A stretch of DNA of 64,000 nt, taken from the NCBI GenBank assembly GCA_964448115.1, contig CAYUVA010000009.1, positions 1 to 64,000 of the forward strand. Direction: 5' to 3'. The DNA is from an uncultured bacterium. Lineage in GTDB: Bacteria; CAYUVA01. The notes under the pieces were generated by a model. It ran no database searches, was not told the origin of the DNA, and saw nothing but the letters and a program-made list of their open reading frames with translations. Shown here piece by piece: positions 1,946-30,271 of the stretch (position 1 is its first letter; each line of letters begins with the position of its first letter). The position numbers and the translations under genes are program-made.

Positions 1946-2002
1946 TGTTTGTTTTCATCGGCGGTGCTCGGATGTCCGTTTCACGGTCTTTTTTCCTAAC
2001 GA

Positions 2003-2076
2003 TACGCCCAGAGGGATTCGAACCCCCGACCTACTGATTCGTAGTCAGTCGCTCTATCCAGCTGAGCTATGGGCGC
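2003..2076 (-). tRNA. tRNA-Arg(ACG), 3' CCA not encoded
   Basis: Reverse complement GCGCCCATAGCTCAGCTGGATAGAGCGACTGACTACGAATCAGTAGGTCGGGGGTTCGAATCCCTCTGGGCGTA folds as a cloverleaf with anticodon loop CT-ACG-AA. Confidence 0.97.
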
Positions 2077-2261
2077 ATATAAATAAAAACAAGGTCTAAT
2101 TATTTTCACTATTTTTCTTGTGTTCAATTTTTGACCATATTAAGTGGACCCGATTCATTGGACAGCAAATCGACATAATTAAGTTAGATTTTGCTTCGGT
2201 ATTACTATAGCTCTTCATTTTTACTTAGTTCCTTTTTGCTATCGCAAATCATCATGTAAAA

Positions 2262-7159: not shown

Positions 7160-10100
7160 ATGGGTAGGTTTGCGATCATGAGACGGGGAGATCCTTTATC
7201 AGGCATCCTTCTTTTGCTTTTATTTTCATCAGCCTTTGCCTCCAATGTGGAGAGACAAAGGGAATTTATCGAGAGGATCGGCTACTACTGGGTACAGGTA
7301 CCCGGCTATGAGATGGAGTTGATGGTCATACCGGGCAATAACGACTGGGCGCTCGAATATCTTAAAGATCCGCTCAATCACCCTTTCGGACAGCGAATCA
7401 AGGCTTGGGAAAAAACGCACGGGCACTATGGCTATCCATTCTGGATGACCCGCCTGGCAAGGGAGATCCTCGGATTGCCCGACTATCCAGAGCTGGAGGA
7501 TATACCGACTACCGAATGCAGCGGTGAGATCGTGTTTCCGCCAAAGGGAGGCTGGCTGTGCAACGCCGTAGAGCAGGGCGCCAAAGGCTCCAAGGGGGAT
7601 GATGTCCTTTATATCAAGATCTATAACTACGATGCGCAGAGTGGTTGCCCAAACTGCGGAGATTTTCTTAACACTGCCGACATCAGGCTAGCAGCGTATT
7701 ATAAGAATGGCTCCTCATGGGCTTGCCTGGGCATGACAAACTACTGCAATGAGTGCTGCTATGGACAAAGCGACCTCCCCAAGACATTCAGTGTAACCCT
7801 GGGCAGCCACTCCACCTTGTATGATGTGAAGATAGGAGCCATAGACTACGACTCGGCGAACGATGATGATCTCTGGTGCGAGAACAACCACTATAATATC
7901 GGAAGCCCCGGCATCTCCAGGGGGTGGCGGAATCTTGATGGAGATTTATCCACCGACTGTGGATCCGGCACCGGCACCTGCCGTGATTCGCCTAAGATGA
8001 AGGCTGACTACGAGGTCTGGTATGGCGACAACGGCATTGATGATCCGAGCTGGTCTTCCACACCGAACGCCTCCACCTGGTACAAGAGCTTCAATTTCAG
8101 TTGGATACTCCCCTCGGACAGGAGCGGCATCCAGAAGTCTGAGCTGCACTTCAGCTCCAACACTATCTTTAGCAGCGCTGATGAAAAGATCTATACGCTC
8201 TATGGCTCGGACAACATGCAGAGCGTAGGCGGAGGTCAAGGCTTGGCTGATCGTGATGGCTGGTACTACGCGGTCATTGTCTATGATAATGCCGGTAATC
8301 CGAGCGACTACAATGACAACGGCTTAGCGGTATTCAGGTTCGATGCCACCAATCCATATCACAGCGATAGCTCCAACCTGCTGGTCTCGGATGAGGCGAC
8401 CTCGGATGCGAGCGCTTATGACTGGGGTGGCTCCGATGCCAAGATAAACATGTCAGCAGCCAACGATGCCACCAGCGGCAGGGCTTATTATCAGTATGAC
8501 CGCGACAATGACCCATCGGATCAGTCCCAGCAGACCAACTGGTCTAACAACATAACCGTAAGCATCCCCGGCTGGATGAACTCGGATGGCTACCATACGG
8601 TCTATGTGCGCATAGTAGATAATGCGGGCAATGACATAGTGGTCTCGGACACGCTATACTGCGATGTGAAAGATCCGACCATCGATAAGCCGCAGTTCAG
8701 CGCTCCCACGGATACCAGCGAGCTTTCTTTCACCTCCAATCCTTATGATTCAGGCTCCGGGGTCGATAATGTCCGCTGCCAGATCACCGAGGATGGGATA
8801 ACCATTTATGATGATTGGGTCGGAAGCGACGGGGATGTAACCATCTATGACGGGGAGCACAACAAGACATATCGGGCATACATGTACGCCAGGGATGAAT
8901 CGGGCAGGACAGGCAGCGGTCAGTGGAGCGACCCGGTGACCCTGGACTGGAATCCGGCTTCTCCTTCTGGCTTGAGCGTGAACTACACAGCCGGAGGGGT
9001 TGGCTTGAGCTGGTACGATAACTCCTCCAACGAGACCGATTTCAGGGTGGAGAAGGGTGAAAATGGCACTACCTGGAGCGAGATCGGCTCACCGACAAGT
9101 CCAAGCTATAACTATAGCTGGCTATCTGGGGACACGAACAAGCGTTTCAACTTCAGGGTGCGAGCGCACAGATACTATCAGAGCGGGCACTACTACTCGG
9201 CATACAACACGAACAGCAACTGGTACTATGCTCCGCCGGCGGCGCCAAGCCAGCTCGAGGCGAATAATGTAACCAACACCTCGATAAACTTCCGCTGGAA
9301 TGATAATTCAGCCTACGAGACCGGATTCAAGGTGGTCTTGAGCGGAGTAGGTACAAGGACTGCGGATCCAGACACTGAGTACTATAGCTGGACGAGCCTG
9401 ACACCCAATACGAACTATACCTCGACCATATATGCATACATCAACGCCAGTGGCGGTTATCCAGGCGACAGCGAGCCATCCAACACCAGGATGACCTGCA
9501 CACTGGCGAGCATCCCCGCCGCCCCGACGGTCAGCAGTTACCCGCAGGATATGCACCGCCTGAATGTGAAGGTCAATCACGGCACCGGCAATCCCGANNN
9601 NNNNNNNTACGTCATCAAGGTTACTTATGCAGGGAAGGTTACCAAGTATGTGGATGCATCAGGCAACCTGGTTGACAGCATGGTCTGGCGGACGCGGGGA
9701 GACTGGGGAGGCAGCAGCGGCATCGATGTTGTCGGCTTGCAGCCGGGCACGCAATACTGTTTTTCCTGCTTTGCCCGCAACTTGAATAGTGTGATCACAG
9801 AGGAAGGAGGCATTGCCTGTGGAACCACCTCTGCGCCGACCTCCACGCCGACCAGAACCCCTAGCGACACTCCGACCTTAACTCCCACGGACACGCCAAC
9901 GACTACACCGACTGTTACCCAGACCCCGACTCGCACTCCAAGCAGAACTCCGACCAACACTCCATGCTATGTAGATGATCCCCTGGAGGCGACGCCGGGG
10001 AATGATACCCCCTTCGATGCACCATTCATTGCGCCCAACGGCATCCCGGTGCAGGAGTTATTCTGCACATCGACCGACCCGGACTGGCATCGGGTCTATG

Positions 10101-11506
10101 TTTACGACAACTACGCGTACCGCTTCTGGACATCGGAGCTAGGTAGCGGTGTTAGAACCAGCATCATACTTTACGACAGCGAGGCTTCTGGAGTGCTAGG
10201 CACCGCCAACCCGGATCCGGTCACCGGTGCCGCGTCCATCTCGTGGGTATATGACACATCAGGGGTTTATTACTTCCTGGTTCAGCCCTCGCAGAGCGCC
10301 TGGGGATACGGCGCGGATTACAACATGCAGGTTCTGGAGATGACCTTCACCCCTACCGGCACGCCGACGGTTACGCAGACGCCCACGGCGACTCCACCCC
10401 CGCCGGGAGCACCTTTGCTCGATCCAGAGCCACCCTATACTGCCGGAGCCAGCAACCGTATCTCGTGGATCCAGGGCGATCCGCCTTATGGAATCGAGTT
10501 TTACGCGCAACGGGCTATAGATCCTATGTTTAACGAGGATGTGGCTGCCAGTGGCTGGATCCCGCAGATGAACTTCACCTTTACTGACCTGCAACATGCG
10601 CAGCTTTACTATTACCGAAGCAAAGCGCGAGATGCAGACGGGAAGCAATCCCCGTGGAGCAATATCGAGTACTCCACGCAGGATTCCATTGCTCCGATAT
10701 GTCAGCTAGATCAGCCATCGCCGGGATTCATTTACGACTTCCAGTATGTCTTCAACGCAGAGGTTATCGAGGATACCAGCGGCATCGACCGCATAGAGCT
10801 TTATTACATGTACAACTATCTACCCCCCTGGCAGTTGTACATGCGATATTACTACGGCTCTCGCATCCCGTTCAATTGCCTGGAGGCTGATGGTTACGGG
10901 CTTTACGAGTTCTACACCGTCGCTTACGATAATGCGGGGAATCGAGAGGCTCAGCAGGCAACGCCAGAGTCCTTAGTAGTATTCAAGCTGACTCCCACGC
11001 CGACAGCTACACCCAGCGACACCCCGCTGACCACAGCGACACCGACCAGCACGCCAACCCCGACCTTCACTGCCACCAGCCCCTATACATCAACCCCGAC
11101 TGGCACCGGGACTCCCAGCGCAGCGCCATCCAACACGCCGACTAGAACTCCGACCAACACCGGCACGCCGTTGCCTAACCTGCGACCCGCTATTATGCTC
11201 GGTGGCTACTTCGACACCCGGCTAAATGCTGCAAGTGGCGGGATATTCAGGATGCTCGCCTTTGTGATCGACAATGATGATCCCATACGATCGGTGGAGA
11301 TTTACTACTCAGGTGTAGGCACCGGGATCTACCTGTTCGATGATGGATCTCACGATGACTTTGGGGCAGGGGATGGTATCTACGGCTTCCCGGTCAGCGG
11401 CATCGGCGGCGGACTGGTGCCTAGCAAACACCTGCTTACCCTTATAGCAACTGATGATCGTGAACTTCAGAGCCTTCGCTGGCCCTACCTCGAAGCAGGG
11501 GAATAA
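7160..11506 (+). CDS. Large secreted modular protein: Cys-rich N-domain, Ig/FN3 repeats, Thr-Pro linkers, C-terminal choice-of-anchor-X-like domain
   Basis: Signal peptide (FSSAFA). FN3 motifs LSWYDNSSNE and FRWNDNSAYE. TPT linkers. C-terminal LFDDGSHDDFGAGDGIYG. A 10-N gap at 9598-9607 means the frame across it is assumed. Confidence 0.8.
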   Translation: MGRFAIMRRGDPLSGILLLLLFSSAFASNVERQREFIERIGYYWVQVPGYEMELMVIPGNNDWALEYLKDPLNHPFGQRIKAWEKTHGHYGYPFWMTRLAREILGLPDYPELEDIPTTECSGEIVFPPKGGWLCNAVEQGAKGSKGDDVLYIKIYNYDAQSGCPNCGDFLNTADIRLAAYYKNGSSWACLGMTNYCNECCYGQSDLPKTFSVTLGSHSTLYDVKIGAIDYDSANDDDLWCENNHYNIGSPGISRGWRNLDGDLSTDCGSGTGTCRDSPKMKADYEVWYGDNGIDDPSWSSTPNASTWYKSFNFSWILPSDRSGIQKSELHFSSNTIFSSADEKIYTLYGSDNMQSVGGGQGLADRDGWYYAVIVYDNAGNPSDYNDNGLAVFRFDATNPYHSDSSNLLVSDEATSDASAYDWGGSDAKINMSAANDATSGRAYYQYDRDNDPSDQSQQTNWSNNITVSIPGWMNSDGYHTVYVRIVDNAGNDIVVSDTLYCDVKDPTIDKPQFSAPTDTSELSFTSNPYDSGSGVDNVRCQITEDGITIYDDWVGSDGDVTIYDGEHNKTYRAYMYARDESGRTGSGQWSDPVTLDWNPASPSGLSVNYTAGGVGLSWYDNSSNETDFRVEKGENGTTWSEIGSPTSPSYNYSWLSGDTNKRFNFRVRAHRYYQSGHYYSAYNTNSNWYYAPPAAPSQLEANNVTNTSINFRWNDNSAYETGFKVVLSGVGTRTADPDTEYYSWTSLTPNTNYTSTIYAYINASGGYPGDSEPSNTRMTCTLASIPAAPTVSSYPQDMHRLNVKVNHGTGNPXXXXYVIKVTYAGKVTKYVDASGNLVDSMVWRTRGDWGGSSGIDVVGLQPGTQYCFSCFARNLNSVITEEGGIACGTTSAPTSTPTRTPSDTPTLTPTDTPTTTPTVTQTPTRTPSRTPTNTPCYVDDPLEATPGNDTPFDAPFIAPNGIPVQELFCTSTDPDWHRVYVYDNYAYRFWTSELGSGVRTSIILYDSEASGVLGTANPDPVTGAASISWVYDTSGVYYFLVQPSQSAWGYGADYNMQVLEMTFTPTGTPTVTQTPTATPPPPGAPLLDPEPPYTAGASNRISWIQGDPPYGIEFYAQRAIDPMFNEDVAASGWIPQMNFTFTDLQHAQLYYYRSKARDADGKQSPWSNIEYSTQDSIAPICQLDQPSPGFIYDFQYVFNAEVIEDTSGIDRIELYYMYNYLPPWQLYMRYYYGSRIPFNCLEADGYGLYEFYTVAYDNAGNREAQQATPESLVVFKLTPTPTATPSDTPLTTATPTSTPTPTFTATSPYTSTPTGTGTPSAAPSNTPTRTPTNTGTPLPNLRPAIMLGGYFDTRLNAASGGIFRMLAFVIDNDDPIRSVEIYYSGVGTGIYLFDDGSHDDFGAGDGIYGFPVSGIGGGLVPSKHLLTLIATDDRELQSLRWPYLEAGE

Positions 11507-20160: not shown

Positions 20161-22314
20161 CTATTGCTCGACTGGCGGGTTTTTGAACTCGTGGATAAGC
20201 TCCTTGAGGCTCTGATCGAACTCGCTTTTTACCTTTACCTCGCCGGGAACGAATCTGAAGCTCCCCTCATGTAGGGTGAACATGTAAAATAGCACCTCTT
20301 TGCCCGATTGCTTGTTGAGAGTCGTTTTTAGCAATCTCCCCTCCTGGAGATAGAGGCGTCCTTCTCCGAAATCTCCTTTTATATAAATAATTCCAGTTGC
20401 TCTCTTGGATTCCAATATTTGCAGAAGATTAGGCAAGGTAACTAGCTTGAGCTGCCCGCGTGTTATCTTGCTTCGGTTTTTCATTATTCTAACCGCTGCC
20501 AGAATGATGATTATCATGGCGATAAATCCGATAATTCCAGCTAAAGCATAATCTGATGTGGTCAGTTTTATGCCTCGGAATCGGTCAATTAGACCATCGG
20601 GTAATCCTTGAGACTGATCGACTTGTTGTAGCGCTGGTTTGGTAGCCTCCAGCTCCATTTTCCTCTCTTTTGCCCATTCATTATAAGGATCTCTGCTCAG
20701 TATCTCATCTATCAATGCAGCGGCAAGGTGTCTTTGACCATTTTTAAGGTATCCTTGGGCGATATCGATAAGTGCGTTTATCTCTGGTTGTCTAACTATT
20801 ACTATGGTCGAAGTCGGTAGAGTGGTTGCTGTATAAGTGGGCAGTGGCCTACTGGTTGGCTCAGGGGAAGGCAGTTTAGTAGGGCTTATTAGGATTGCAG
20901 TGGCGGCGGATGGTTGTATTGTTGGCTTAGCTCTTTTTTGCACAAAGATAGTAGAGGTTGGTTGGGGCTTTTTTGGCTCACTGGGCGTGTATCCTGGCCA
21001 ACCTTCTGTATCCGCAGCGGCAACCAGAGGGCTTAGTTGCTCTATTTGCCATTTAATATCCTCGTTTTGGGGATCTAAATCCAGGGCAGACTCCAAGTAT
21101 CTCAAGGCTGATCTGTTATCCCCCATATAGCGATAAATCTTTGACATAAGTTGGTATTCCCTGACTCCAGCAACTCCACCTTCTATCATTCGCTTTAATG
21201 CATCTAGTGCGCGATTGAGTTCATCGATCTTAAAGCAGCTTTCGGCAAGCAAATAAAGCTCCCCTAAGCTTAGCTTGCCGGCTTCATCTACTGCACGCAG
21301 GTATCTAGTAGCATCAGCAAAGTCACCGCGCTTGTAGCTGATAAGCCCCATGAGCCGTTTGGCTTCGATATCATCCGGCTTGATCCGCAGATACTCCAAA
21401 AGGTATCTCTCAGCGCTGTGCATGTCCTTTTGTTGATAATAAAGACTTCCCAAATCCAACCTCAACTCATCCTCTGCTTGCTCATATTCTAATGCTTCCT
21501 TATAAGCGCGACATGCTGCTGGGATATCATCGCACTGCTGGTATGCATCGCCCAAGTTGGTTTGTAGCCTATAATGCAGTCTTGCTGGAATAGGTACCTG
21601 CGATCTCTTCTCCATATCAAGGACAGCCTGAAGCTGCTCAATAGCATCTTGACATCTATTTTGTTTGATATGCAGGATACCCAGATTGATCCTGGCTTCG
21701 ATGAGGGTTGCATCCAGTGATACAGCCTTCTTCAGGTATGGCTCTGCCTTTTGGTAGTCTTCTTTATCCAAATAAAGCGCACCGAGCATATATTGTGCCT
21801 TTGCATCCCCGGGGAGATTGGAGGATAGTTTCAGGGCATAATTTATTGCCTTATCTAGATCGCCAATCTCCTCATTCACAATTATGGACAACTTAAGTGC
21901 CCTATTATTATCAGCGTTGATCTCAAGGATTTTTTCAAGGGTGGTTCGAGCCTTTAATAGCTGACCTTTCTTGTATTGCGTAACAGCAAGATTATACAGG
22001 ATCTTCTCATCACCAGGCGCTAGTTTTGATGCCTTCAAGAAGGCATCCAGGGCATCATCAGTTCTGCCCTGCCTGAAGAGGCAATCGCCGAGATCATTGT
22101 AGGCATCTGCATACTGCGGATATATATCTATTGCGCGTTGGAAGGCTTCTATGGCTTGCTCATAGTCGCCTGTCTCCATGAAGCGATGACCCTTTTTATA
22201 GTAGGTTTGAGCATCATAAGGGATCAACGCAAATAGATCAGATGAATGCAAGCATAAAAGGATAGCAATGGAAGATAAGATAAGATAGCTATATCTGTCC
22301 CTTAACTTTCCCAT
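20161..22314 (-). CDS. Signal peptide-TPR array-Pro/Thr linker-TM-DUF4388 protein
   Basis: Many TPRs; TM YALAGIIGFIAMIIIILAAV; C-terminal GQLKLVTLPNLLQILES..TGIIYI..GRLYLQEGRL..EGSFRF. Confidence 0.8.
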   Translation of the reverse strand: MGKLRDRYSYLILSSIAILLCLHSSDLFALIPYDAQTYYKKGHRFMETGDYEQAIEAFQRAIDIYPQYADAYNDLGDCLFRQGRTDDALDAFLKASKLAPGDEKILYNLAVTQYKKGQLLKARTTLEKILEINADNNRALKLSIIVNEEIGDLDKAINYALKLSSNLPGDAKAQYMLGALYLDKEDYQKAEPYLKKAVSLDATLIEARINLGILHIKQNRCQDAIEQLQAVLDMEKRSQVPIPARLHYRLQTNLGDAYQQCDDIPAACRAYKEALEYEQAEDELRLDLGSLYYQQKDMHSAERYLLEYLRIKPDDIEAKRLMGLISYKRGDFADATRYLRAVDEAGKLSLGELYLLAESCFKIDELNRALDALKRMIEGGVAGVREYQLMSKIYRYMGDNRSALRYLESALDLDPQNEDIKWQIEQLSPLVAAADTEGWPGYTPSEPKKPQPTSTIFVQKRAKPTIQPSAATAILISPTKLPSPEPTSRPLPTYTATTLPTSTIVIVRQPEINALIDIAQGYLKNGQRHLAAALIDEILSRDPYNEWAKERKMELEATKPALQQVDQSQGLPDGLIDRFRGIKLTTSDYALAGIIGFIAMIIIILAAVRIMKNRSKITRGQLKLVTLPNLLQILESKRATGIIYIKGDFGEGRLYLQEGRLLKTTLNKQSGKEVLFYMFTLHEGSFRFVPGEVKVKSEFDQSLKELIHEFKNPPVEQ

Positions 22315-22443: not shown

Positions 22444-22479
22444 AAGACGGGGGAGCCAAGATAAGGCTCCCCCGTTTTT
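22444..22479. terminator. Intrinsic terminator after the minus-strand CHAT cluster
   Basis: AAGACGGGGGAGCC-aagataa-GGCTCCCCCGTTTTT. Confidence 0.8.
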
Positions 22480-22506
22480 CGGGTATAGTGGGTTAACTTT
22501 CCTAGT

Positions 22507-24481
22507 TTATCTTAGCGATGGATATCCGGCTGCCTCAAGAGTGAAATCGAGAACCGTCTCCTCTTCAGCCACCAGCTCTATCTGCACGAACTCAGGCATA
22601 TAGCCTTGCTTCCATGCAACTGCGGTGTATTGGCCAGCGGGTACATTCTCCAAAAGGTAAACGCCATCTTCATTGGTCCTGGTATATCTGATGCCGTGAA
22701 ATCCACCCATGCCGCCCCTTAATTCCTGTCCAGGGGTGAATCCAGGTGGCAAAAGCGCGACCCAAGCCTCGGCAAGAGACTCGCCGCTGTCTGCATCAGT
22801 AACCGTACCGCTCAATGTTGCCAATCCCGGTGCTTGGAGCGGAGATAGGGCAAAGTCCATCACGGTCAGCTCACCTTCTATGATCTCGACCTCAGCGTGT
22901 GCAGGCTGGTAACCGGCTGCTATGACTGCCATAGGCCAGGTGCCTTGAGGTACATTCTCAAAGGAGTAATAGCCATTCTCATCGGTACGAGTTACGAAGC
23001 GACCATGCGGTCTCCTGCCACCCCAGCCTTCGGGAAGCCCGCGGAAGCTGTGCGGATTGCGCACATGGGGTCCAGCCATAACCGCTACAAAGGCACCGCC
23101 GATCGGCTCGCCGGTATCAGCATCGGTTACGAAGCCTTCCAGCGCTCCAAAGGGGATCTCGCCGCGCCTGGTCAAGCCGATGTCATACTCGATCTCCTCC
23201 TCGCCGATGATCTCGAAGCTGTCGGTGTAAAGCTCATACCTTGATGCCATGGCGATAAGTGTGTACTCGCCCTCCGGGATGTTGGTTATCTCGTAGTATC
23301 CCTGCTCATCGCTTACGGCATGGAGACCACAAGGCGGACGATGGGGAGGCTCTTCACCTTCACCCCTGCCGAACACCTGTCTCGGCGGGAATTCCACATT
23401 GCCAGGTATAAGCACTATATGAGCGCCGGCAATCGGTTCCTCGGTCTCGACATCATAGACAATGCCGTACAGCGTGGCGTCGCCCTCTGGCGGCGGAGGC
23501 GGTACATTGGATTCGAGAGCGAAATCGACTGTAACCGTGCTTTCAGCTATAACCTCGACCGTTGCCTCAGCCGGGAGATAACCATGCTTATGGGCACGAA
23601 CTATGCGCTCACCAGCCGGCACCTCTTCAAGCAGGTAGTATCCCTGCTCATTGGTAACCGCAAAGCAACCGTTCCATTGGCCAACATTGACCATCGCCCN
23701 NNNNNNNNNNNNNNNNNNNNNNNNNNNNNNNNNNNNNNNNNNNNNNNNNNNNNNNNNNNNNNNNNNNNNNNNNNNNNNNNNNNNNNNNNNNNNNNNNNNC
23801 AGCTATCGGCTCGCCGGTGGCTGCATCGGTAACTATCCCCTCGATGGCGCCGAATTCATCTGGTGGTGGAGGCGGCTCCTCGCCGGGCATAAGCTCGAAG
23901 TTAAGCTCTGCCACCTGGTCGGGGATGACCTGGACGCCAGCGTGGGCGGGCATGTAGCCTTCCTTGAAGGCGTGCACCATCTGGAAGCCAGGCATCACAT
24001 CATCGAGCAGGTAATAGCCGTTCTCATCGGTGATAGCGGAGAACTCCGGTCCCCAACCTAGGCTGATCACAGCCCCAGCTATCGGCTCGCCGGTGGCTGC
24101 ATCGGTAACTATCCCCTCGATGGCGCCGAACTCATCTGGTGGGGGTGGCGGCTCTTCTGCATTCAATCCGATCTCGACATAATTTATCTCGCCGGCTACT
24201 ACTTCGACCTCGACGGTAGCCATCTCGTATCCAGGGGCAACCACATTGAGCAGCCAGGTGCGAGCCATAATATGCTCAATGAAGAACATACCCTGTTCAT
24301 CGGTGTAAGCCTGCCACATGCCAGCCATTACATGGGCGCCTGCTATAGGCTGCTGGGTAGCTGCATCATAGACCAGCCCCTCGATACTGCCGTACTGATT
24401 GGGTGGATTGGCGTAAGCGCCGAAAGCACCCGCCAGCAGCAGGATCATAATAAGTGTGAAAAGTTTTGCTGAAGATCTCAT
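22507..24481 (-). CDS. Secreted protein of tandem carboxypeptidase-regulatory-like (Cna-B-type) beta-sandwich repeats; one gene split by a 100-N gap
   Basis: Signal peptide. Repeats of G.V.DA.TGEPI.GA.V...TDENGYY...VP.G on both sides of the gap. PPPP linkers. AAGGAG SD. Confidence 0.8.
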
Positions 24482-24682
24482 AACTTCAACTCCTTATGTT
24501 TTGTTGGTTAACATCTCCTGGGGTCAAAAGGATGACCGGACTAACATCTTCAGTTGGTTTGCAATTATTCAACTGTTCGATTAACATGTTACTAGGGGTA
24601 GTTGAGCGAGCCTCCTGGCAGTGGATAACGCTCCGGCAGGTCTCCTCAACTATTCCCATCAACGCTATCACCTCCTTGATGA

Positions 24683-26389
24683 TCATTTTATCAAACCCTT
24701 GTTGCTGTTAATATCTTTTATCCTTATTTCGGGCTTCATGTCCAAGATAGTATGCATCGGCATTTCCTTAATGCGTAGCGATTTATTCGGATCATCATCG
24801 CTGGCATCCAATGGATCTGCTCCGCGCATAAGCTCGTAGTAGTCCTCCTCGCCGCCGCCATCGGTATCCACCAGGCCAGGCGACATCTCGCGAAGCGAGT
24901 AGAATGACATCCTCTCCAGGTCATCTCCTTCATCATCAGCAAGCACTATCGAGTCTGCCTTTGAGTTGTTTTTATTAGGCTCAATGATGCCAGCCCTGGG
25001 TGAAACCAGCGCCCAGATATGCTTTATCCTGAGCTGATCGTATTCGAGCTGCTGCTCGCTGCGGGGATAGAAGTAATACTCGGCATTATCGCTCACCAGG
25101 CGATCCATAACCTCCTCAGTGATGGGCAGCGGTCCCTCGGTAAATACATCGTGAGGTGGCGTGATCTTTTCCCATATAATGTAAAGCTCGCCGTCCTCGA
25201 TGATGCCTGTATCCTCATTGGCAGGGCTTCCACCTACAACAGCCACCTGTAGCGAAGGGCTGGCGAAAACAAATATCTTGGAGTAATGGTAACCTTGATC
25301 TATAGGCATATAATCCGGAGCATGATTAACATCGGTGGTGCCGAAGATGGGCGCTCCAAATCCGCAGGGGATATCAGGCTCCCCAGCATCAACACCTGGA
25401 GAACCAGCAGGCAGGTAATACTCTCCTAGCGGTCCCGTAATGAAAGGCTGCGGTTCCGAGATATTATGGTACACCGGGTGCTGGAAGTAGGGATCGAGGT
25501 TCGAAGACCAGTTACCTGCTGGATTATCTGCAACATTATTATATCTGAAGTTCATCAAGAAACCTTGCGCCACCAGTGCAACACCACCTAAATTTTCTAC
25601 GATGATATTGCTGGAGAAGAATATCTGGGGGCTGCCATCATAATAAACACCCGAACCGATCAGCGCGAAGTTATCTACTATCGTATTGCTGATTATACTT
25701 CCCATGCCTCCGCTCTGCTCCACCCAGAAGATGGCTCCACCGCTGGATTGATATGGCTCCTCGTCTAGCTCCGGGCAGTGGTTGTGAGCGATGATGTTGT
25801 TGGAGATGATCGTAAAATTGCTGCCGGCGACGAAGATACCCGCGCCTTGCTGGGCAAAATTGTCCATGATATGATTATTTGTGATCAGACAATACAGGGA
25901 ATTCGACACGCGAAAGCCTCCCCCATGCGGTGATGAGCCGCCTGTAATGGTGAAGCCCTCGACTATATTGAAGAAGCCATTCTCGATGGATATGACCGGA
26001 GCTTGCTCGTTGCCAACAATAAAGGTCTTGTCCGGACCTGAGCCATACAGCGCTACTGGAAAATCTATCTGTAGGTTCTCATGGTACTCTCCGGGGGCAA
26101 CCATTATCTCAGCGAAGACATCTTGAAGCGACTCAGCCTCGCTGATTGCCTTGCCGATAGTTCGATATGGAGAAAATACGCTTCCATCGCCCTGATCATC
26201 GTCTCCCCAGGGACTGACATAGAGGGTTATCTCTGTCTCTGGTATCGGATTCCTCCCCCGCTGAGCATAGGTCAGTGTCGCAATGCTGCCCAGAAGGATA
26301 AGTGCCGAGAGTATAAAGATTGCCAGAGCCAACCGGCTCTTATTTTTGCTGAAAAACTCTTTATGTCTCATGATATCATCTCCCTTCAT
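24683..26389 (-). CDS. Secreted right-handed beta-helix (DUF1565/pectin-lyase-like) protein with a Ca-binding TSP3-like C-terminal motif
   Basis: YVSPWGDD..GDGS..PYRTI..AI, VAPGEYHEN, IEGFTITGG-type strands, DTDGGGEEDYYE..GADPLDASDD. Confidence 0.8.
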   Translation of the reverse strand: MKGDDIMRHKEFFSKNKSRLALAIFILSALILLGSIATLTYAQRGRNPIPETEITLYVSPWGDDDQGDGSVFSPYRTIGKAISEAESLQDVFAEIMVAPGEYHENLQIDFPVALYGSGPDKTFIVGNEQAPVISIENGFFNIVEGFTITGGSSPHGGGFRVSNSLYCLITNNHIMDNFAQQGAGIFVAGSNFTIISNNIIAHNHCPELDEEPYQSSGGAIFWVEQSGGMGSIISNTIVDNFALIGSGVYYDGSPQIFFSSNIIVENLGGVALVAQGFLMNFRYNNVADNPAGNWSSNLDPYFQHPVYHNISEPQPFITGPLGEYYLPAGSPGVDAGEPDIPCGFGAPIFGTTDVNHAPDYMPIDQGYHYSKIFVFASPSLQVAVVGGSPANEDTGIIEDGELYIIWEKITPPHDVFTEGPLPITEEVMDRLVSDNAEYYFYPRSEQQLEYDQLRIKHIWALVSPRAGIIEPNKNNSKADSIVLADDEGDDLERMSFYSLREMSPGLVDTDGGGEEDYYELMRGADPLDASDDDPNKSLRIKEMPMHTILDMKPEIRIKDINSNKGLIK

Positions 26390-26392
26390 CTA

Positions 26393-29242
26393 TTATACCC
26401 CAAACAGCCTGAATGCGCCCCACAAGAAGGGGTGGTTGTATTTTTCTCTAACTTGAATCTGTGCGTATTTTAGCGAATCTTCAACGCTGTTACTATTTAA
26501 TATAATACCATTATAGAATTTTTCCATTAACAAAGCGGTCGCATCATCATCCACCTTCCAGGAACTCGCCAGGATGTTACTTCCCCCAGCCATGAGAAAT
26601 CCCCTAATGAAGCCCTCAAGCTCATCACCACTAAGCGGAGCTGCGCTGCCGGTCTGGCAGGCAGAAAGGGTAACCAACTGCGCGGATAGATGTAGCGAGG
26701 CTATATCTCCAAGGAACAATGCGGAGTCGTTCAACTGTATGTGCGACAGGTATGGTTTCTGTGAATCGAGTATCGCATGACTGGCAATATGAACCAGGCT
26801 CTTCCCCTTCATCCGGGCACTAAGCGCACTGGATTGGTCCTTTAGGGCAATCTGCGCGCCAGGGATAAGCTCTGCCAGGTAGTACACCTCTTTTTGAATG
26901 CCGGGGAACCTATGATCTTCGATGCCGGCAAGCAGTGTATCCTTGAATATCGAATCTATATTCATGGTGCTCCTGTGGAGCAGAAGCTGCCCAGTGGGAA
27001 GATATCGGAAGGCAATTCTATCCCCGATATATCCCTGAGTGTCCCTAAGCAACCCGTAGTTAAGGCTATGCAGCACCCCGTAAGGAACGATAAAGACCAT
27101 GCTTTTATCGCCAAGCAGCGCCATGACAGGCTCCATGACAAGATGATAAAGCCTGTTGAGCCACCAGTTGGTGCTTATCAAAAGCTGTTGGCTGTTTTCC
27201 TTGAAGAGCTTCGGCTGCGCCTCGAAGAGAAGCAGCTCCTGGTTATGGAATTCAGCGCATTCTCTGCGGATAGTTTCATAATTGCCGATATCGATGACCC
27301 GCACAGAGTCAACGGTCAGCACGAAAGAAAGCAGCCTTCCCATGACCTTGTAGTACTCGCAAAGAGCCTCGTCATCGGCTAGAGATGCCATGATTCCTTT
27401 TATATTGAGGCTTCTCGTCTTGGAGCTTTCCTTGGCGCGCAGAGGATAAAGCTCCTGCTGCATCCTAGCCGAGAGGTGCTCGAAGCGCTCGGATAGCGCC
27501 TGGAGCTGCTCGTTTATATCTGTATCTATTGGAGCATAGTATTGTCCGCGGGTCTTATGGTAACCTCTCAGCTCCTTATACAAGGCTGACAGCCGCTCTG
27601 CTACCATATTATATTCCTTTATCAACCGCTTCTGCGAGCTGCTCAGGCTCCTGGCTTTGATTTCAAGGCGATTAGCTATGCGTTCGATGAACACAGCCGA
27701 CCTTGCCCCCTCAACCAGCCGCAGTGCGCTTAGTAAATGCTCCTCATCGCCCACCTCAATGCACAGGTTTATCGCCTCCTCGAAGAGCTGTATCTTGTCT
27801 TCCAGGTAACCGATGGCAGCCCATTGTGCTGGGGCGAGCGATAATCTCAAGTGATCGATAGCTTTCAATGCCTTTAGATATAGTTTGATCGCTTTTTTCT
27901 TTTGTCCAAAAGAGGCGTGCTGGGTGGCTTGAAGCCGTATAGCGCGAAATTCAAGCTCTACGAAACGATGTTCCCTGGCTATATCGAGCGCAGCATTGGT
28001 AAACTCAGCTTGCTCCTTATAATGCCCCCTGATGCCTGCCAATTCACCCAGGGTAATCAGCATAAGGCATTTTCGCCAGGGGGATTCATCGATCTGGGGC
28101 AATCTTTGCAGCTCTTCTGCCGCTTTCTCAGCCTTATCCAACTGCTTCATCTTAAGCAATAATTGCAGCCTTTGGATTATGGCAGAGCACAGCAGGGTTA
28201 TATCCCCGGCGTCACCAGCATATTCCTCTGTTTTAGCCAATAGTTCCAATGCTTGATCATAATCTCCCTTAAAAGCGTTGATACGCGCCAGCGAAAGCCT
28301 GCATTGGTTCAATTCTAGTTTGATACCTAAGTCCTCATAAAGGATCACCAGTTTATTCAGAAATCTAGCTGCCCCGCTGTGGTCATTCAAAGCAATGAGC
28401 GCCTCTGCCTTGGTCTGCATGGCAACCGCTAGCTCTCTCTTCAGTCCATGCTTTTTATAAGTATCGATTAGATGATCGACCTTCTTTATCCCTTGCAGGT
28501 ATTTGCCCCTGTTGATGTAAGTGGTTGCCAGGGCTAGATCGACTGCTGCAACATTGAGTTTCTCTTTTCGAGCCTTGAAGACCTTCTTGGCTGTAAACAG
28601 AGCCTTTTGAGCATCCTGGTAATAGCCGAGATCATTCAGGCAGACCGCCCGGTTGGTCTCGTTAATCGCAAGGTCGTCCTCCATGCCAAGCCTATTGAAA
28701 AGCTCGCTGGCACGCAGGTAATCATTGTGTGCATCAGTTAATTCGCCTTTGAATAACCTGAGATTCGCTCGACGAGTTAATAACCTGGCAAGCCCGGCTT
28801 CATCCCCTTTCTGCTCGAAGTTATCTGCCAGGTCGTCACTGATGGTCATTGCCTGTTCGTATCTTCCCAGGTACATCAGTGGAGAGATAAGAGCCATCAG
28901 AGTACGATCAACATCCGGCTGATAGCCTAGCTCGCTAAAGTGCTGATACGCTTGTTCCAGGGTCGAGACAGCCCTCTCATAATCAGCCATCATGGTGGCA
29001 ACCGTGCCTTGCCAGAACAACGAACCGGCGATTAACTGCTTTTTCCCAGATTGATCAGCCAGATATCGGTATGCATAAACAAGCGTGAGCGCATCCTGGG
29101 GCTTGTTTCGTCTCATCGAGTCGATGGCAGACTCGATCTCTGAGACAAGTTTCCCATCAAGGCGCTTTACAAGCCGGTCAAGATATCCCTGTCGCTCGCT
29201 CTCGGATGAGAAGCCCAGTATTTTCCTGATCACGCTGTTCAT
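26393..29242 (-). CDS. TPR-CHAT domain protein (clan CD caspase-like protease)
   Basis: N-terminal TPRs; FIVPYGVLH, HIASHA (His), LVTLSACQTG (Cys), SWKVDD, HPFLWGAF. Confidence 0.92.
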   Translation of the reverse strand: MNSVIRKILGFSSESERQGYLDRLVKRLDGKLVSEIESAIDSMRRNKPQDALTLVYAYRYLADQSGKKQLIAGSLFWQGTVATMMADYERAVSTLEQAYQHFSELGYQPDVDRTLMALISPLMYLGRYEQAMTISDDLADNFEQKGDEAGLARLLTRRANLRLFKGELTDAHNDYLRASELFNRLGMEDDLAINETNRAVCLNDLGYYQDAQKALFTAKKVFKARKEKLNVAAVDLALATTYINRGKYLQGIKKVDHLIDTYKKHGLKRELAVAMQTKAEALIALNDHSGAARFLNKLVILYEDLGIKLELNQCRLSLARINAFKGDYDQALELLAKTEEYAGDAGDITLLCSAIIQRLQLLLKMKQLDKAEKAAEELQRLPQIDESPWRKCLMLITLGELAGIRGHYKEQAEFTNAALDIAREHRFVELEFRAIRLQATQHASFGQKKKAIKLYLKALKAIDHLRLSLAPAQWAAIGYLEDKIQLFEEAINLCIEVGDEEHLLSALRLVEGARSAVFIERIANRLEIKARSLSSSQKRLIKEYNMVAERLSALYKELRGYHKTRGQYYAPIDTDINEQLQALSERFEHLSARMQQELYPLRAKESSKTRSLNIKGIMASLADDEALCEYYKVMGRLLSFVLTVDSVRVIDIGNYETIRRECAEFHNQELLLFEAQPKLFKENSQQLLISTNWWLNRLYHLVMEPVMALLGDKSMVFIVPYGVLHSLNYGLLRDTQGYIGDRIAFRYLPTGQLLLHRSTMNIDSIFKDTLLAGIEDHRFPGIQKEVYYLAELIPGAQIALKDQSSALSARMKGKSLVHIASHAILDSQKPYLSHIQLNDSALFLGDIASLHLSAQLVTLSACQTGSAAPLSGDELEGFIRGFLMAGGSNILASSWKVDDDATALLMEKFYNGIILNSNSVEDSLKYAQIQVREKYNHPFLWGAFRLFGV

Positions 29243-29248
29243 GATTTT

Positions 29249-30040
29249 TTATGGTATTGAAAGGTTTACCTCGTAGATATGGTCGGTATATACCAGAACC
29301 AAGTACTCGCCAGCAGTTATATTCTCGAACTTATGGAAGCCCGGTGCCTTGAGATCATTTGCAATGATCTCTCCATCCAGCTTATCTATAAGCATCAGCG
29401 GCATTACAACATCGTTAAGTGTATCGCCTGTTCGGTGCAAAAGCCTTATGGTCAGTGAATAAGTCCCCTCTTTGTCTTTCAAGGAGTATTGGATGATCAC
29501 CTGGGTATTATCATCCAGGTAAGCCCGGTAAATACGAATATCGCTTTGATTGAGAGATGAAGGCATTGCCGAACGCAAGCTGGAGGCGGTGGCGGTGATA
29601 GGCTGCAAGGAAATTAATGATTCCTTTATATCATTCAAAGCGGTCGAGGCATCTCCTAGCGCTCTTTTATTCAAGTCCTTGAAGTATCTTATTCCCTTCT
29701 CGATGATAGGATAAGCCTTCTCCTCGACTGATACATCGGCTAGTATCTCGACAAGCTCCTTGCATTGCCGGCAATATTGGATGTGCTGCTCTATTTCACA
29801 AGCCTTTTCCTGGATTAATGAAGGATCGCCAGAGGCATAGGCGATAAGTAGATCTTCATCGGGGCAAGAAACATCAAAGAGATCCCGGTTCTGGGATAAT
29901 AGATCAATAAAATTCTCAGCACTGTTTTTTCGCTTCTGGCACCTGGCGCAATCGCAGTCATGCTCGTAGCCATGCTCTTCCACAGGGCTTGCCAGCTTTC
30001 TCAGAAGTTCGTCTTGATGTACATGCTTACTGCTCATCAT
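29249..30040 (-). CDS. Soluble zf-HC2 (ZAS) anti-sigma-like protein with two Zn motifs and a C-terminal beta-sandwich
   Basis: HDCDCARC and CPDEDLLIAYA..HIQYCRQC; C-terminal GFHKFENITAGEY; no TM segment. Confidence 0.7.
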   Translation of the reverse strand: MMSSKHVHQDELLRKLASPVEEHGYEHDCDCARCQKRKNSAENFIDLLSQNRDLFDVSCPDEDLLIAYASGDPSLIQEKACEIEQHIQYCRQCKELVEILADVSVEEKAYPIIEKGIRYFKDLNKRALGDASTALNDIKESLISLQPITATASSLRSAMPSSLNQSDIRIYRAYLDDNTQVIIQYSLKDKEGTYSLTIRLLHRTGDTLNDVVMPLMLIDKLDGEIIANDLKAPGFHKFENITAGEYLVLVYTDHIYEVNLSIP

Positions 30041-30271
30041 CTCTCAACGCTATTATCGTAAAAGCGGTTCATTTCCTTTCAATCATCAAGAAAGAATTTA
30101 AACTAAAAAAATGCCCGCCTAAAAATGTCCAGGTGGTTCTGATAACGTTCATAGTTTAAGCCTCAAGCCTAATTTGATATTTGCGATCGCATCGCTTAAT
30201 ATCAATCACCGAATTGACTATATAACAACAATGCTGTCATCCATTGATGGCAGTAAATACGAGGTGAATAG

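Follow-up and report, generated by a model that had tools for sequence, protein, structure and literature searches.

Whether a caspase-like protease may gate the release of a sigma factor outside CRISPR systems, even at a locus that encodes no sigma factor, is the question raised by a four-gene operon (g1 to g4) on the minus strand of a 64-kb stretch of DNA from an uncultured bacterium (contig CAYUVA010000009.1, positions 1 to 64,000; the whole stretch is hereafter called the window). An initial annotation had proposed that g2, a protein combining tetratricopeptide repeats (TPR) with a CHAT protease domain, cleaves g1, a soluble zinc-binding anti-sigma (ZAS) protein, and thereby releases a sigma factor of the extracytoplasmic function (ECF) type that drives surface proteins. 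Comparison with related genomes supports g1 as the anti-sigma member of a cassette family, namely as a full-length homologue of the protein encoded between the ECF sigma and TPR-CHAT genes. The reading that we favor, with a probability of roughly 45%, is that the operon is a divergent, sigma-less derivative of an ECF54-type cassette, in which g1 would hold a sigma factor and the CHAT domain would gate its release. The observations of the initial annotation are confirmed by our analysis, and its interpretation is partly supported.

The evidence that carries this reading comes from a survey of GTDB, with one genome per species, in which an alignment of g2 with its three nearest relatives served as query. 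It retrieved 78 loci, none of them from the source genome of the window, and local profiles of the sigma, g1-like and S8 proteins were run on the six-frame translations of all these loci and of the window. In 24 of the 78 loci, the CHAT gene belongs to a cassette encoding an ECF sigma factor (Sigma70_r2/r4), a g1-like protein, the TPR-CHAT protein (about 930–1030 residues) and a secreted Peptidase_S8 subtilase with a fervidolysin-type pro-domain. The profiles matched a sigma factor in 19 loci, a g1-like protein in 21 and an S8 protease in 23, all inside the cassette set, and the tested sigma factors pass the TIGR02937 cut-off for the ECF family. Sigma and g1-like genes occur together in all 19 loci whose upstream DNA spans about 1.5 kb or more, and a g1-like gene in two more that are truncated upstream; the absence of sigma from five of the 24 is uninformative because in exactly those loci fewer than 800 bp precede the CHAT gene on the contig. 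In 21 of the 24 cassettes, the g1-like open reading frame (ORF) and the CHAT gene are adjacent; in the other three, the contig stops at the CHAT gene. The g1-like frame comes immediately after the sigma gene in 18 of 19 loci, and a subtilase gene on the same strand comes afterwards in 22 of 24 (exceptions L007 and L025). One cassette (L010, 3205-8414) is rearranged in the order sigma, CHAT, g1-like (H-x3-C-x2-C), S8, which leaves the g1-like gene beside CHAT and not beside sigma. The linkage of the g1-like and CHAT genes, on which the initial annotation had staked its proposal, is thus conserved.

These cassette pairs are found in Chloroflexota, Acidobacteriota and metagenome-assembled genomes labelled Bacillota. 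Their g1-like proteins (160–265 residues, with zf-HC2 or CarboxypepD_reg matches) have no transmembrane (TM) segment and mostly show an H-x4-C-x2-C spacing, and the subtilases have N-termini that, by eye, resemble signal peptides. A short g1-like form of 132–163 residues occurs in five loci (L012, L033, L046, L054 and L065), which are cassettes of the Pyrinomonadaceae/Chloracidobacterium type, several of which encode, past the subtilase, a secreted FG-GAP/CHRD protein. Neither sigma nor g1-like nor S8 genes neighbour the CHAT gene in the other 54 loci, the nearest to an exception being a weak sigma match 7.8 kb away in L051. Their CHAT proteins (e.g., L005, L016, L034, L052 and L069) are mostly of about 705–840 residues, with a few truncated by contig ends and two of about 1030–1090, and originate mostly from Syntrophales, Geobacter and Thermodesulfovibrionales. 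They align to g2 mainly from about residue 200–450 onward, and the N-terminal TPR half (about residues 1–445) aligns among cassette members only.

The relationship of g1 to this family emerged from profile comparison in both directions. Word-based searches returned g1 itself, or g1 plus P0037 and nothing more, so that finding relatives took a full scan with HMMER, which covered 1.84 billion representatives. It gave 11 proteins at E ≤ 0.001, including P0030, P0032 and P0037, which are small and of the same length class as g1, and the longer P0035. P0030, P0032 and P0037 have the same architecture as g1, with a C-terminal match of the CarboxypepD_reg/transthyretin type in P0037 and P0030; P0037 (35.4 bits vs 22.2) and P0035 score above the zf-HC2 (PF13490) cut-off. 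A profile of this subfamily (g1 and its three closest relatives) matches a CHAT-adjacent ORF in 12 related loci, with E values from 2e-11 to 5.5e-3 among 1169 ORFs, and gives one extra match to a large ORF that is not beside CHAT (L078 5517-8162, E 0.001). Aligned by hhalign with 19 cassette proteins, the subfamily reaches a probability of 98.4% (E 6.1e-15) over 187 columns, from the ZAS domain through the beta-sandwich. In the reverse search, the cassette profile built from the loci only matches g1 (E 7e-4) colinearly over residues 59–248, its sole other match in the window being g4 (E 7.2e-5), on the repeated beta-sandwich domain.

Furthermore, the profile of all 24 family sequences matches solved anti-sigma domains, i.e., those of RsiW (5wuq_C, E 1.9e-6), DdvA (8rlz_A, E 5e-4), ChrR (2q1z_B, E 1.2e-3) and RslA (E 0.043), as well as the full-length DdvA chain 8rot_B (E 0.034). 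Its C-terminal half matches transthyretin-like domains of the NOMO type, with NOMO2 (9c7v_B) at E 1e-20. Pfam finds zf-HC2 in 4 of the 24 members at E ≤ 0.01 and CarboxypepD_reg in 13 of them. In a protein-atlas search, the clusters nearest to g1 (score 0.95) hold proteins of about 230–240 residues, 23–56% of which carry zf-HC2, and are commonest in Omnitrophota and Chloroflexota. By these comparisons, the assignment of g1 as a zinc-type anti-sigma protein is confirmed at the family level and not from g1 alone.

The candidate zinc ligands of g1 form the set C59-x26-H86-x3-C90-x2-C93, invariant in its alignment with P0030, P0032 and P0037. The full C...H...C..C pattern is present in 16 of the 24 family members, the protein of L010 keeping H..C..C with a His in first position. 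Outside the ZAS domain, the most conserved parts of the g1-like proteins are the short linear motifs LIFDS, xVRS and RQxLF, and R156, in the linker, is the sole residue invariant across all 24 sequences. An AlphaFold2 (AF2) model of g1 built with the family alignment predicts a helical anti-sigma domain at residues 60–104 (block-mean pLDDT 88–92) and a beta-sandwich from residue 171 (84–96), joined by a linker whose pLDDT falls below 50 at residues 106–115, 130–133 and 135–163 (block means 31–51); the model made from g1 without an alignment has a pLDDT of 48.7. No TM segment is present in g1 (maximum of the hydropathy score KD19, 0.92), in agreement with its annotation as a soluble protein, and a transmembrane anti-sigma factor was rejected on this basis.

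As for g2, it carries a strong match to the CHAT family of clan CD proteases (E 3.8e-41, 141.9 bits vs a cut-off of 24) and matches to TPR families (TPR_12, 38.6 bits vs 30.1). Both HIASH and SACQTG are found in its sequence, and an alignment of 25 relatives shows no variation at H818, H822 and C862; the dyad is intact, as had been claimed, and H822, in HIASH, is the residue that we take to be the catalytic His of the CHAT family. The protein has neither an N-terminal signal-like segment nor a TM-like segment (maximum KD19 1.54). A tree built from the last 510 residues places g2 with the cassette proteins on one side of a split (98% SH-aLRT), 49 non-cassette CHAT proteins being on the other. 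A complex prediction with family alignments, run on shortened chains without the ZAS domain of g1 and the first 77 residues of g2 (g2 78-949 and g1 136-263), yielded no answer (score 0.00), which speaks neither for nor against binding. When plasmids of PLSDB were searched by tblastn, matches to g2 were confined to its CHAT domain, and neither g1 nor one cassette g1-like protein had a match; a Streptomyces plasmid locus matching g2 (L079) encodes a lone CHAT protein of 1287 residues and is not a cassette.

The four genes are co-oriented over 30040..22507, with gaps of 6 bp (29243-29248), 3 bp (26390-26392) and 201 bp (24482-24682), and a single terminator-like hairpin closes the operon, as first annotated (Table 1). 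The hairpin, at 22475..22447, has the longest stem among the 8 terminator-like sites of the region, a count that is not enriched since shuffled sequence gives a mean of 6.7. Sites resembling the sigma-70 consensus number 13 for 10.2 expected, and one of them precedes g1, in a 231-bp intergenic region shared with a divergent PpiD-like gene.

Table 1. Positions of the operon genes, of their domains and key residues, and of the flanking signals in the window.
Feature	Position	Strand	Description
Promoter candidate, sigma-70-like	30055..30082	-	TTGAAA-16-TACGAT, 9/12, consensus match only; upstream of g1
g1	29249..30040	-	263 aa; soluble anti-sigma-like protein: ZAS-type domain, disordered linker, C-terminal transthyretin/CarboxypepD_reg-like beta-sandwich
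g1 anti-sigma domain core, residues 57-104	29729..29872	-	Candidate zinc ligands C59, H86, C90, C93
g1 linker, residues 105-167	29540..29728	-	One long low-confidence helix at 111-139, then predicted disorder including R156
g1 R156	29573-29575	-	Invariant in 24/24 family members; candidate cleavage or docking site
g1 beta-sandwich, residues 168-263	29252..29539	-	CarboxypepD_reg/transthyretin-like type; AF2 strands at 168-262
g2	26393..29242	-	949 aa; TPR-CHAT protein, cytoplasmic by sequence
g2 CHAT domain, residues 695-948	26399-27160	-	PF12770
g2 H822 (dyad)	26777-26779	-	Invariant in relatives
g2 C862 (dyad)	26657-26659	-	Invariant in relatives
g3	24683..26389	-	568 aa; exported or membrane-anchored right-handed beta-helix protein, DUF1565/NosD-like
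g4	22507..24481	-	Predicted secreted; CarboxypepD_reg repeats (S-layer-like); signal-peptide-like N-terminus
Intrinsic-terminator-like hairpin	22447..22475	-	11-pair stem, 9 G-C pairs, 7-nt loop, then T-rich tail CTTATTTAAA; closes operon

The two distal genes were annotated as encoding secreted proteins, with which their N-termini agree. The N-terminus of g3 holds a strongly hydrophobic segment (KD19 2.53 at residue 20) and its body matches DUF1565 (E 5.9e-11) and Beta_helix (E 2e-8); no homologue was found in the 78 related loci, and g3 occupies the slot that the secreted S8 subtilase has in the relatives. The g4 gene is broken by a 100-N scaffold gap (23700-23799), and the ORF listing gives two ORFs. 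The surrounding sequence consists of near-identical CarboxypepD_reg repeat units, with the peptide just ahead of the gap repeating one located about 100 residues upstream, and the differing frames of the two halves carry no meaning because the length of 100 N is a placeholder. Both halves match CarboxypepD_reg (E 3.5e-30 and 1.3e-46), with matches below threshold to the Kustd1514 S-layer family.

Compared with the cassette, the window has no sigma gene, and the place of the subtilase is taken by the beta-helix protein and the CarboxypepD_reg-repeat protein; the S8 profile matched nothing in its six-frame translation. The Pfam scan of the window covered its 54 larger ORFs and left out an ORF of 1448 residues at 7160-11506. 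Among the ORFs scanned, no Cas domain was detected, and the window showed no repeat array; a link to CRISPR was rejected, in line with the CRISPR independence proposed at the outset. Similarly, none of g1, g2, g3 and the two halves of g4 matches a family of the PADLOC 2.0 defence models, and a known defence system was rejected on this ground.

In the vicinity of the operon, the gene directly past the terminator (20161-22314, minus strand) encodes a protein of 717 residues with many TPR repeats, one TM segment, a C-terminal DUF4388 domain and a promoter-like site of its own, and several related loci have neighbours similar to it in their TPR repeats only. Farther away, a tRNA-Arg(acg) gene (2001-2077, minus strand) is followed by an ORF of 89 residues (2526-2795) whose match is confined to the beginning of the ApeA N-terminal domain (E 1.3e-13). 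The two belong to the low-GC first 2 kb (0.416) and may be the remnant of an inserted element or defence gene. The ORF of 1448 residues, on the plus strand, contains a 10-N gap (9598-9607).

Under the favored reading, g1 would hold an ECF sigma factor encoded elsewhere in the genome, and the TPR arm of g2 would read a cytoplasmic cue. The CHAT domain would then cut, or otherwise inactivate, g1 in its disordered linker, R156 being a possible site and the beta-sandwich a docking handle, and the freed anti-sigma fragment would be degraded. The released sigma factor would in turn switch on envelope genes including the g1-g4 operon, in which g3 and g4, in place of the subtilase of the relatives, are probably output genes. 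A wider proposition can be built on the same data, which we hold as tentative and rather doubtful: the free-standing TPR-CHAT proteins of this clade would be dedicated, CRISPR-free anti-sigma proteases whose substrates combine a ZAS domain, an Arg-containing linker and a beta-sandwich docking domain, ECF54-like groups would be caspase-gated sigma switches, and the pair found in the window would have been uncoupled from sigma and joined to envelope genes, acting in trans or independently of sigma.

Several observations weigh against the favored reading. The presumed partner of g1 is missing locally, since neither the Pfam scan nor the cassette-sigma profile, run in six frames, revealed a sigma-70-family gene in the 64-kb window; the ECF sigma factor of the initial annotation thus has no counterpart there. 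The published ECF54 promoter motif (GTATCAG ... CTCC) does not occur in the window, and a crude k-mer count, which is not a proper motif search, disclosed no motif common to the regions upstream of the 19 cassette sigma genes. Taken alone, g1 matches 0 Pfam families at E ≤ 10, reaches ChrR in NCBIfam below threshold (E 0.029, 14.2 bits vs a cut-off of 124.5) and retrieves no anti-sigma chain from the PDB by phmmer. Its whole model gives no Foldseek match in the PDB at E ≤ 0.001, the top ones being generic beta-sandwiches and ChrR ranking ninth (E 0.018). The zinc anti-sigma call of the initial annotation could thus be confirmed at the level of the family, through the ligand set and the RsiW, DdvA and ChrR profile matches, and not from the isolated protein. 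Furthermore, g1 shares 12–24% identity with the cassette g1-like proteins and g2 21–25% with the cassette CHAT proteins, a range that also applies to its closest relatives. The end branch of g2 is the longest in the CHAT tree (3.38), so long that its placement is unsure, and this branch, together with such strong sequence divergence from the cassette proteins, implies that the function of g1 and g2 may have drifted. The family itself is heterogeneous: in the five loci with the short form, the g1-like protein starts past the ZAS domain with sigma still adjacent, and the cysteines are lost in L003 and L004. Part of the family can thus do without the ZAS domain, which makes a simple anti-sigma model less convincing, and since this domain is absent or deprived of its cysteines in seven loci, the linker motifs and the beta-sandwich, rather than the ZAS domain, are the constant feature of these proteins. 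Finally, we infer every step of the proposed pathway, that is, sigma binding by g1, its cleavage by g2, the cue and the regulon, for all members of the family, and the same applies to R156 as the cleavage site.

Four other explanations have to be weighed. The best of them, although we consider it unlikely, is that g1 and g2 form a module independent of any sigma factor, in which CHAT might be a caspase-like effector set off by redox changes or stress, g1 serving as zinc-thiol sensor or as inhibitor, or the pair might ensure quality control or processing of the co-transcribed envelope proteins, or belong to a conflict or defence system. It would account for a window deprived of sigma, for the replacement of the subtilase by unrelated exported proteins and for the long branches of both g1 and g2. 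ZAS domains are moreover known as thiol-redox sensors, as for RsrA, and g1 has an extra N-terminal extension (residues 1–56, 29873-30040) with a second His/Cys cluster, H27, C29, C31 and C34, within 8 residues, which is missing from its nearest relative; this extension also exists in P0032, but without the cysteines, and is unconserved. However, g1 retains the four zinc ligands and, in the AF2 model, a confidently predicted anti-sigma fold, as expected of a sigma binder, ECF sigma factors are often encoded apart from their regulators, and no PADLOC model is matched by any of the operon's five predicted products (g4 counted as two halves). Direct processing of g3 and g4 by g2 is itself unlikely because g1 and g2 are predicted to be cytoplasmic, whereas g3 and g4 are predicted to be exported.

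Less probable is a mechanism of binding without cutting, where the TPR-CHAT protein would act as an anti-anti-sigma factor whose TPR arm sequesters the linker or the beta-sandwich of g1 away from sigma, the CHAT site being used otherwise or for a later removal of g1. TPR arrays are protein-binding modules, the N-terminal TPR half of the CHAT protein is the part that aligns solely among cassette members, and the linear motifs LIFDS, xVRS and RQxLF of the g1-like proteins could be docking peptides. On the other hand, the His/Cys dyad is invariant in all 25 aligned CHAT proteins, which argues for selection on catalysis, and every characterized sigma-linked TPR-CHAT system, as far as the published descriptions go, involves or proposes cleavage.

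We regard as still less probable that the protease is directed at sigma itself or at another target, the g1-like protein being an adaptor or the product of a target gene. This idea agrees with the published accounts of ECF54, which deny a putative anti-sigma factor to the group and propose that its protease-type neighbours regulate sigma or respond to it (Casas-Pastor 2021, PMC7826278; PMC8999054), as well as with the five cassette loci without a ZAS domain. Against it stand the family-level match of the sigma-adjacent protein to solved anti-sigma domains, the zinc motif kept by two-thirds of the family (16/24) and the location of the g1-like gene right after sigma in 18 of 19 loci, which is the usual position of an anti-sigma gene. 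A mere chance adjacency of two unrelated genes, g1 and g2, is hardly credible given the 6-bp gap and the homologous pair standing side by side in 21 loci. Should the proposed cleavage of g1 by g2 not take place, the operon would be merely a divergent TPR-CHAT locus with two envelope proteins.

The neighbourhood described here relates to several known systems, foremost to the ECF54 group, which reportedly originates from Huang et al. 2015. As in ECF54, a CarboxypepD_reg-like protein, here represented by the beta-sandwich of g1, adjoins a TPR-CHAT protein, and the 24 relatives also have the ECF sigma factor and the subtilase beside this pair. According to its supplement, the ECF classification places ECF54 in Actinobacteria, with a CarboxypepD_reg protein at +1, a subtilase at +2 or -1 and a CHAT/TPR protein at +3 or -2 (Casas-Pastor 2021, NAR, PMC7826278). 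This classification and a 2022 review state that the group has no putative anti-sigma factor and propose for its conserved protease-type neighbours a role in regulating sigma or responding to it (PMC7826278, PMC8999054), proteolytic control being put forward in the latter (PMC8999054). The idea of the initial annotation is thus less new than it seemed: the neighbourhood type is already catalogued as ECF54 with proteolysis proposed (PMC7826278, PMC8999054), and, by its published description, DdvA is a characterized anti-sigma factor fused to a TPR-CHAT protein (PMC11506125). The version without sigma or subtilase is what is new here. The relatives, likened to ECF54 by gene neighbourhood and not by sigma group, differ from its published description, which is restricted to Actinobacteria, by their occurrence in Chloroflexota and Acidobacteriota and by their order, which is sigma, g1-like, CHAT, subtilase rather than sigma, CarboxypepD_reg, subtilase, CHAT. 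Above all, the papers list no anti-sigma factor in the parts dealing with this group, whereas the comparisons made here indicate that the CarboxypepD_reg protein of the catalogue carries an anti-sigma domain that had gone unrecognized. The ECF classifications, in those same parts, list the neighbourhood without an anti-sigma factor and leave its regulation open; a vague idea of proteolysis now has a named candidate protease and substrate, with C862 and R156 as the residues to consider.

Two characterized systems come closest to the proposed mechanism. In Myxococcus xanthus, DdvA, the partner of DdvS, is described as a single polypeptide, made of a ZAS domain followed by a TM helix and by a TPR-CHAT part located in the periplasm; self-cleavage of a flexible linker by CHAT is proposed and not shown, intramembrane proteolysis by RseP coming next; it controls a CBASS/CRISPR island (PMC11506125). 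Thiol-redox sensing by ZAS domains is discussed in the same paper (PMC11506125). The window shares with DdvA a ZAS-type domain tied to a TPR-CHAT protein whose His/Cys dyad is canonical, and the ZAS domain of DdvA is among the matches of the g1 family profile. It differs in that g1 and g2 are separate genes 6 bp apart, predicted to be cytoplasmic and without a TM-like segment, that the beta-sandwich of g1 is absent from DdvA, and that no defence genes were seen in the window scans. In the type III-E Craspase, the TPR-CHAT protein Csx29, activated by target RNA through Cas7-11, is reported to cleave Csx30, which relieves the inhibition of CASP-sigma (PMC10028731). With its cytoplasmic TPR-CHAT protein cutting a separate soluble inhibitor of an ECF-type sigma factor, Craspase is the closest functional analogue of the mechanism proposed here. 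The window differs from it by the lack of Cas7-11 among the ORFs scanned and of a CRISPR array. Furthermore, g2 does not match the Csx29 model at E ≤ 1, a cassette CHAT protein reaches 42.5 bits vs a cut-off of 300, and the accessible text on Craspase does not describe Csx30 as a ZAS protein (PMC10028731).

With the classical ZAS proteins (RsrA, ChrR, RslA and RsiW), g1 has in common the H/C-x(23-27)-H-x3-C-x2-C pattern and a predicted helical anti-sigma domain; it differs from them by the absence of an adjacent sigma gene and by its C-terminal CarboxypepD_reg-like domain in place of a cupin or TM segment. A literature search, which most subscription journals lay outside, found no study of a free-standing TPR-CHAT protein with a separate soluble ZAS protein. 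If the favored reading is true, caspase-like control of sigma factors would extend beyond CRISPR systems and DdvA of Myxococcus, and the sigma-less window would be an example of the re-use of such a pair. On the wider and more doubtful proposition, ECF54-like groups would be the cytoplasmic, split counterpart of DdvA and the CRISPR-free counterpart of Craspase/Csx30.

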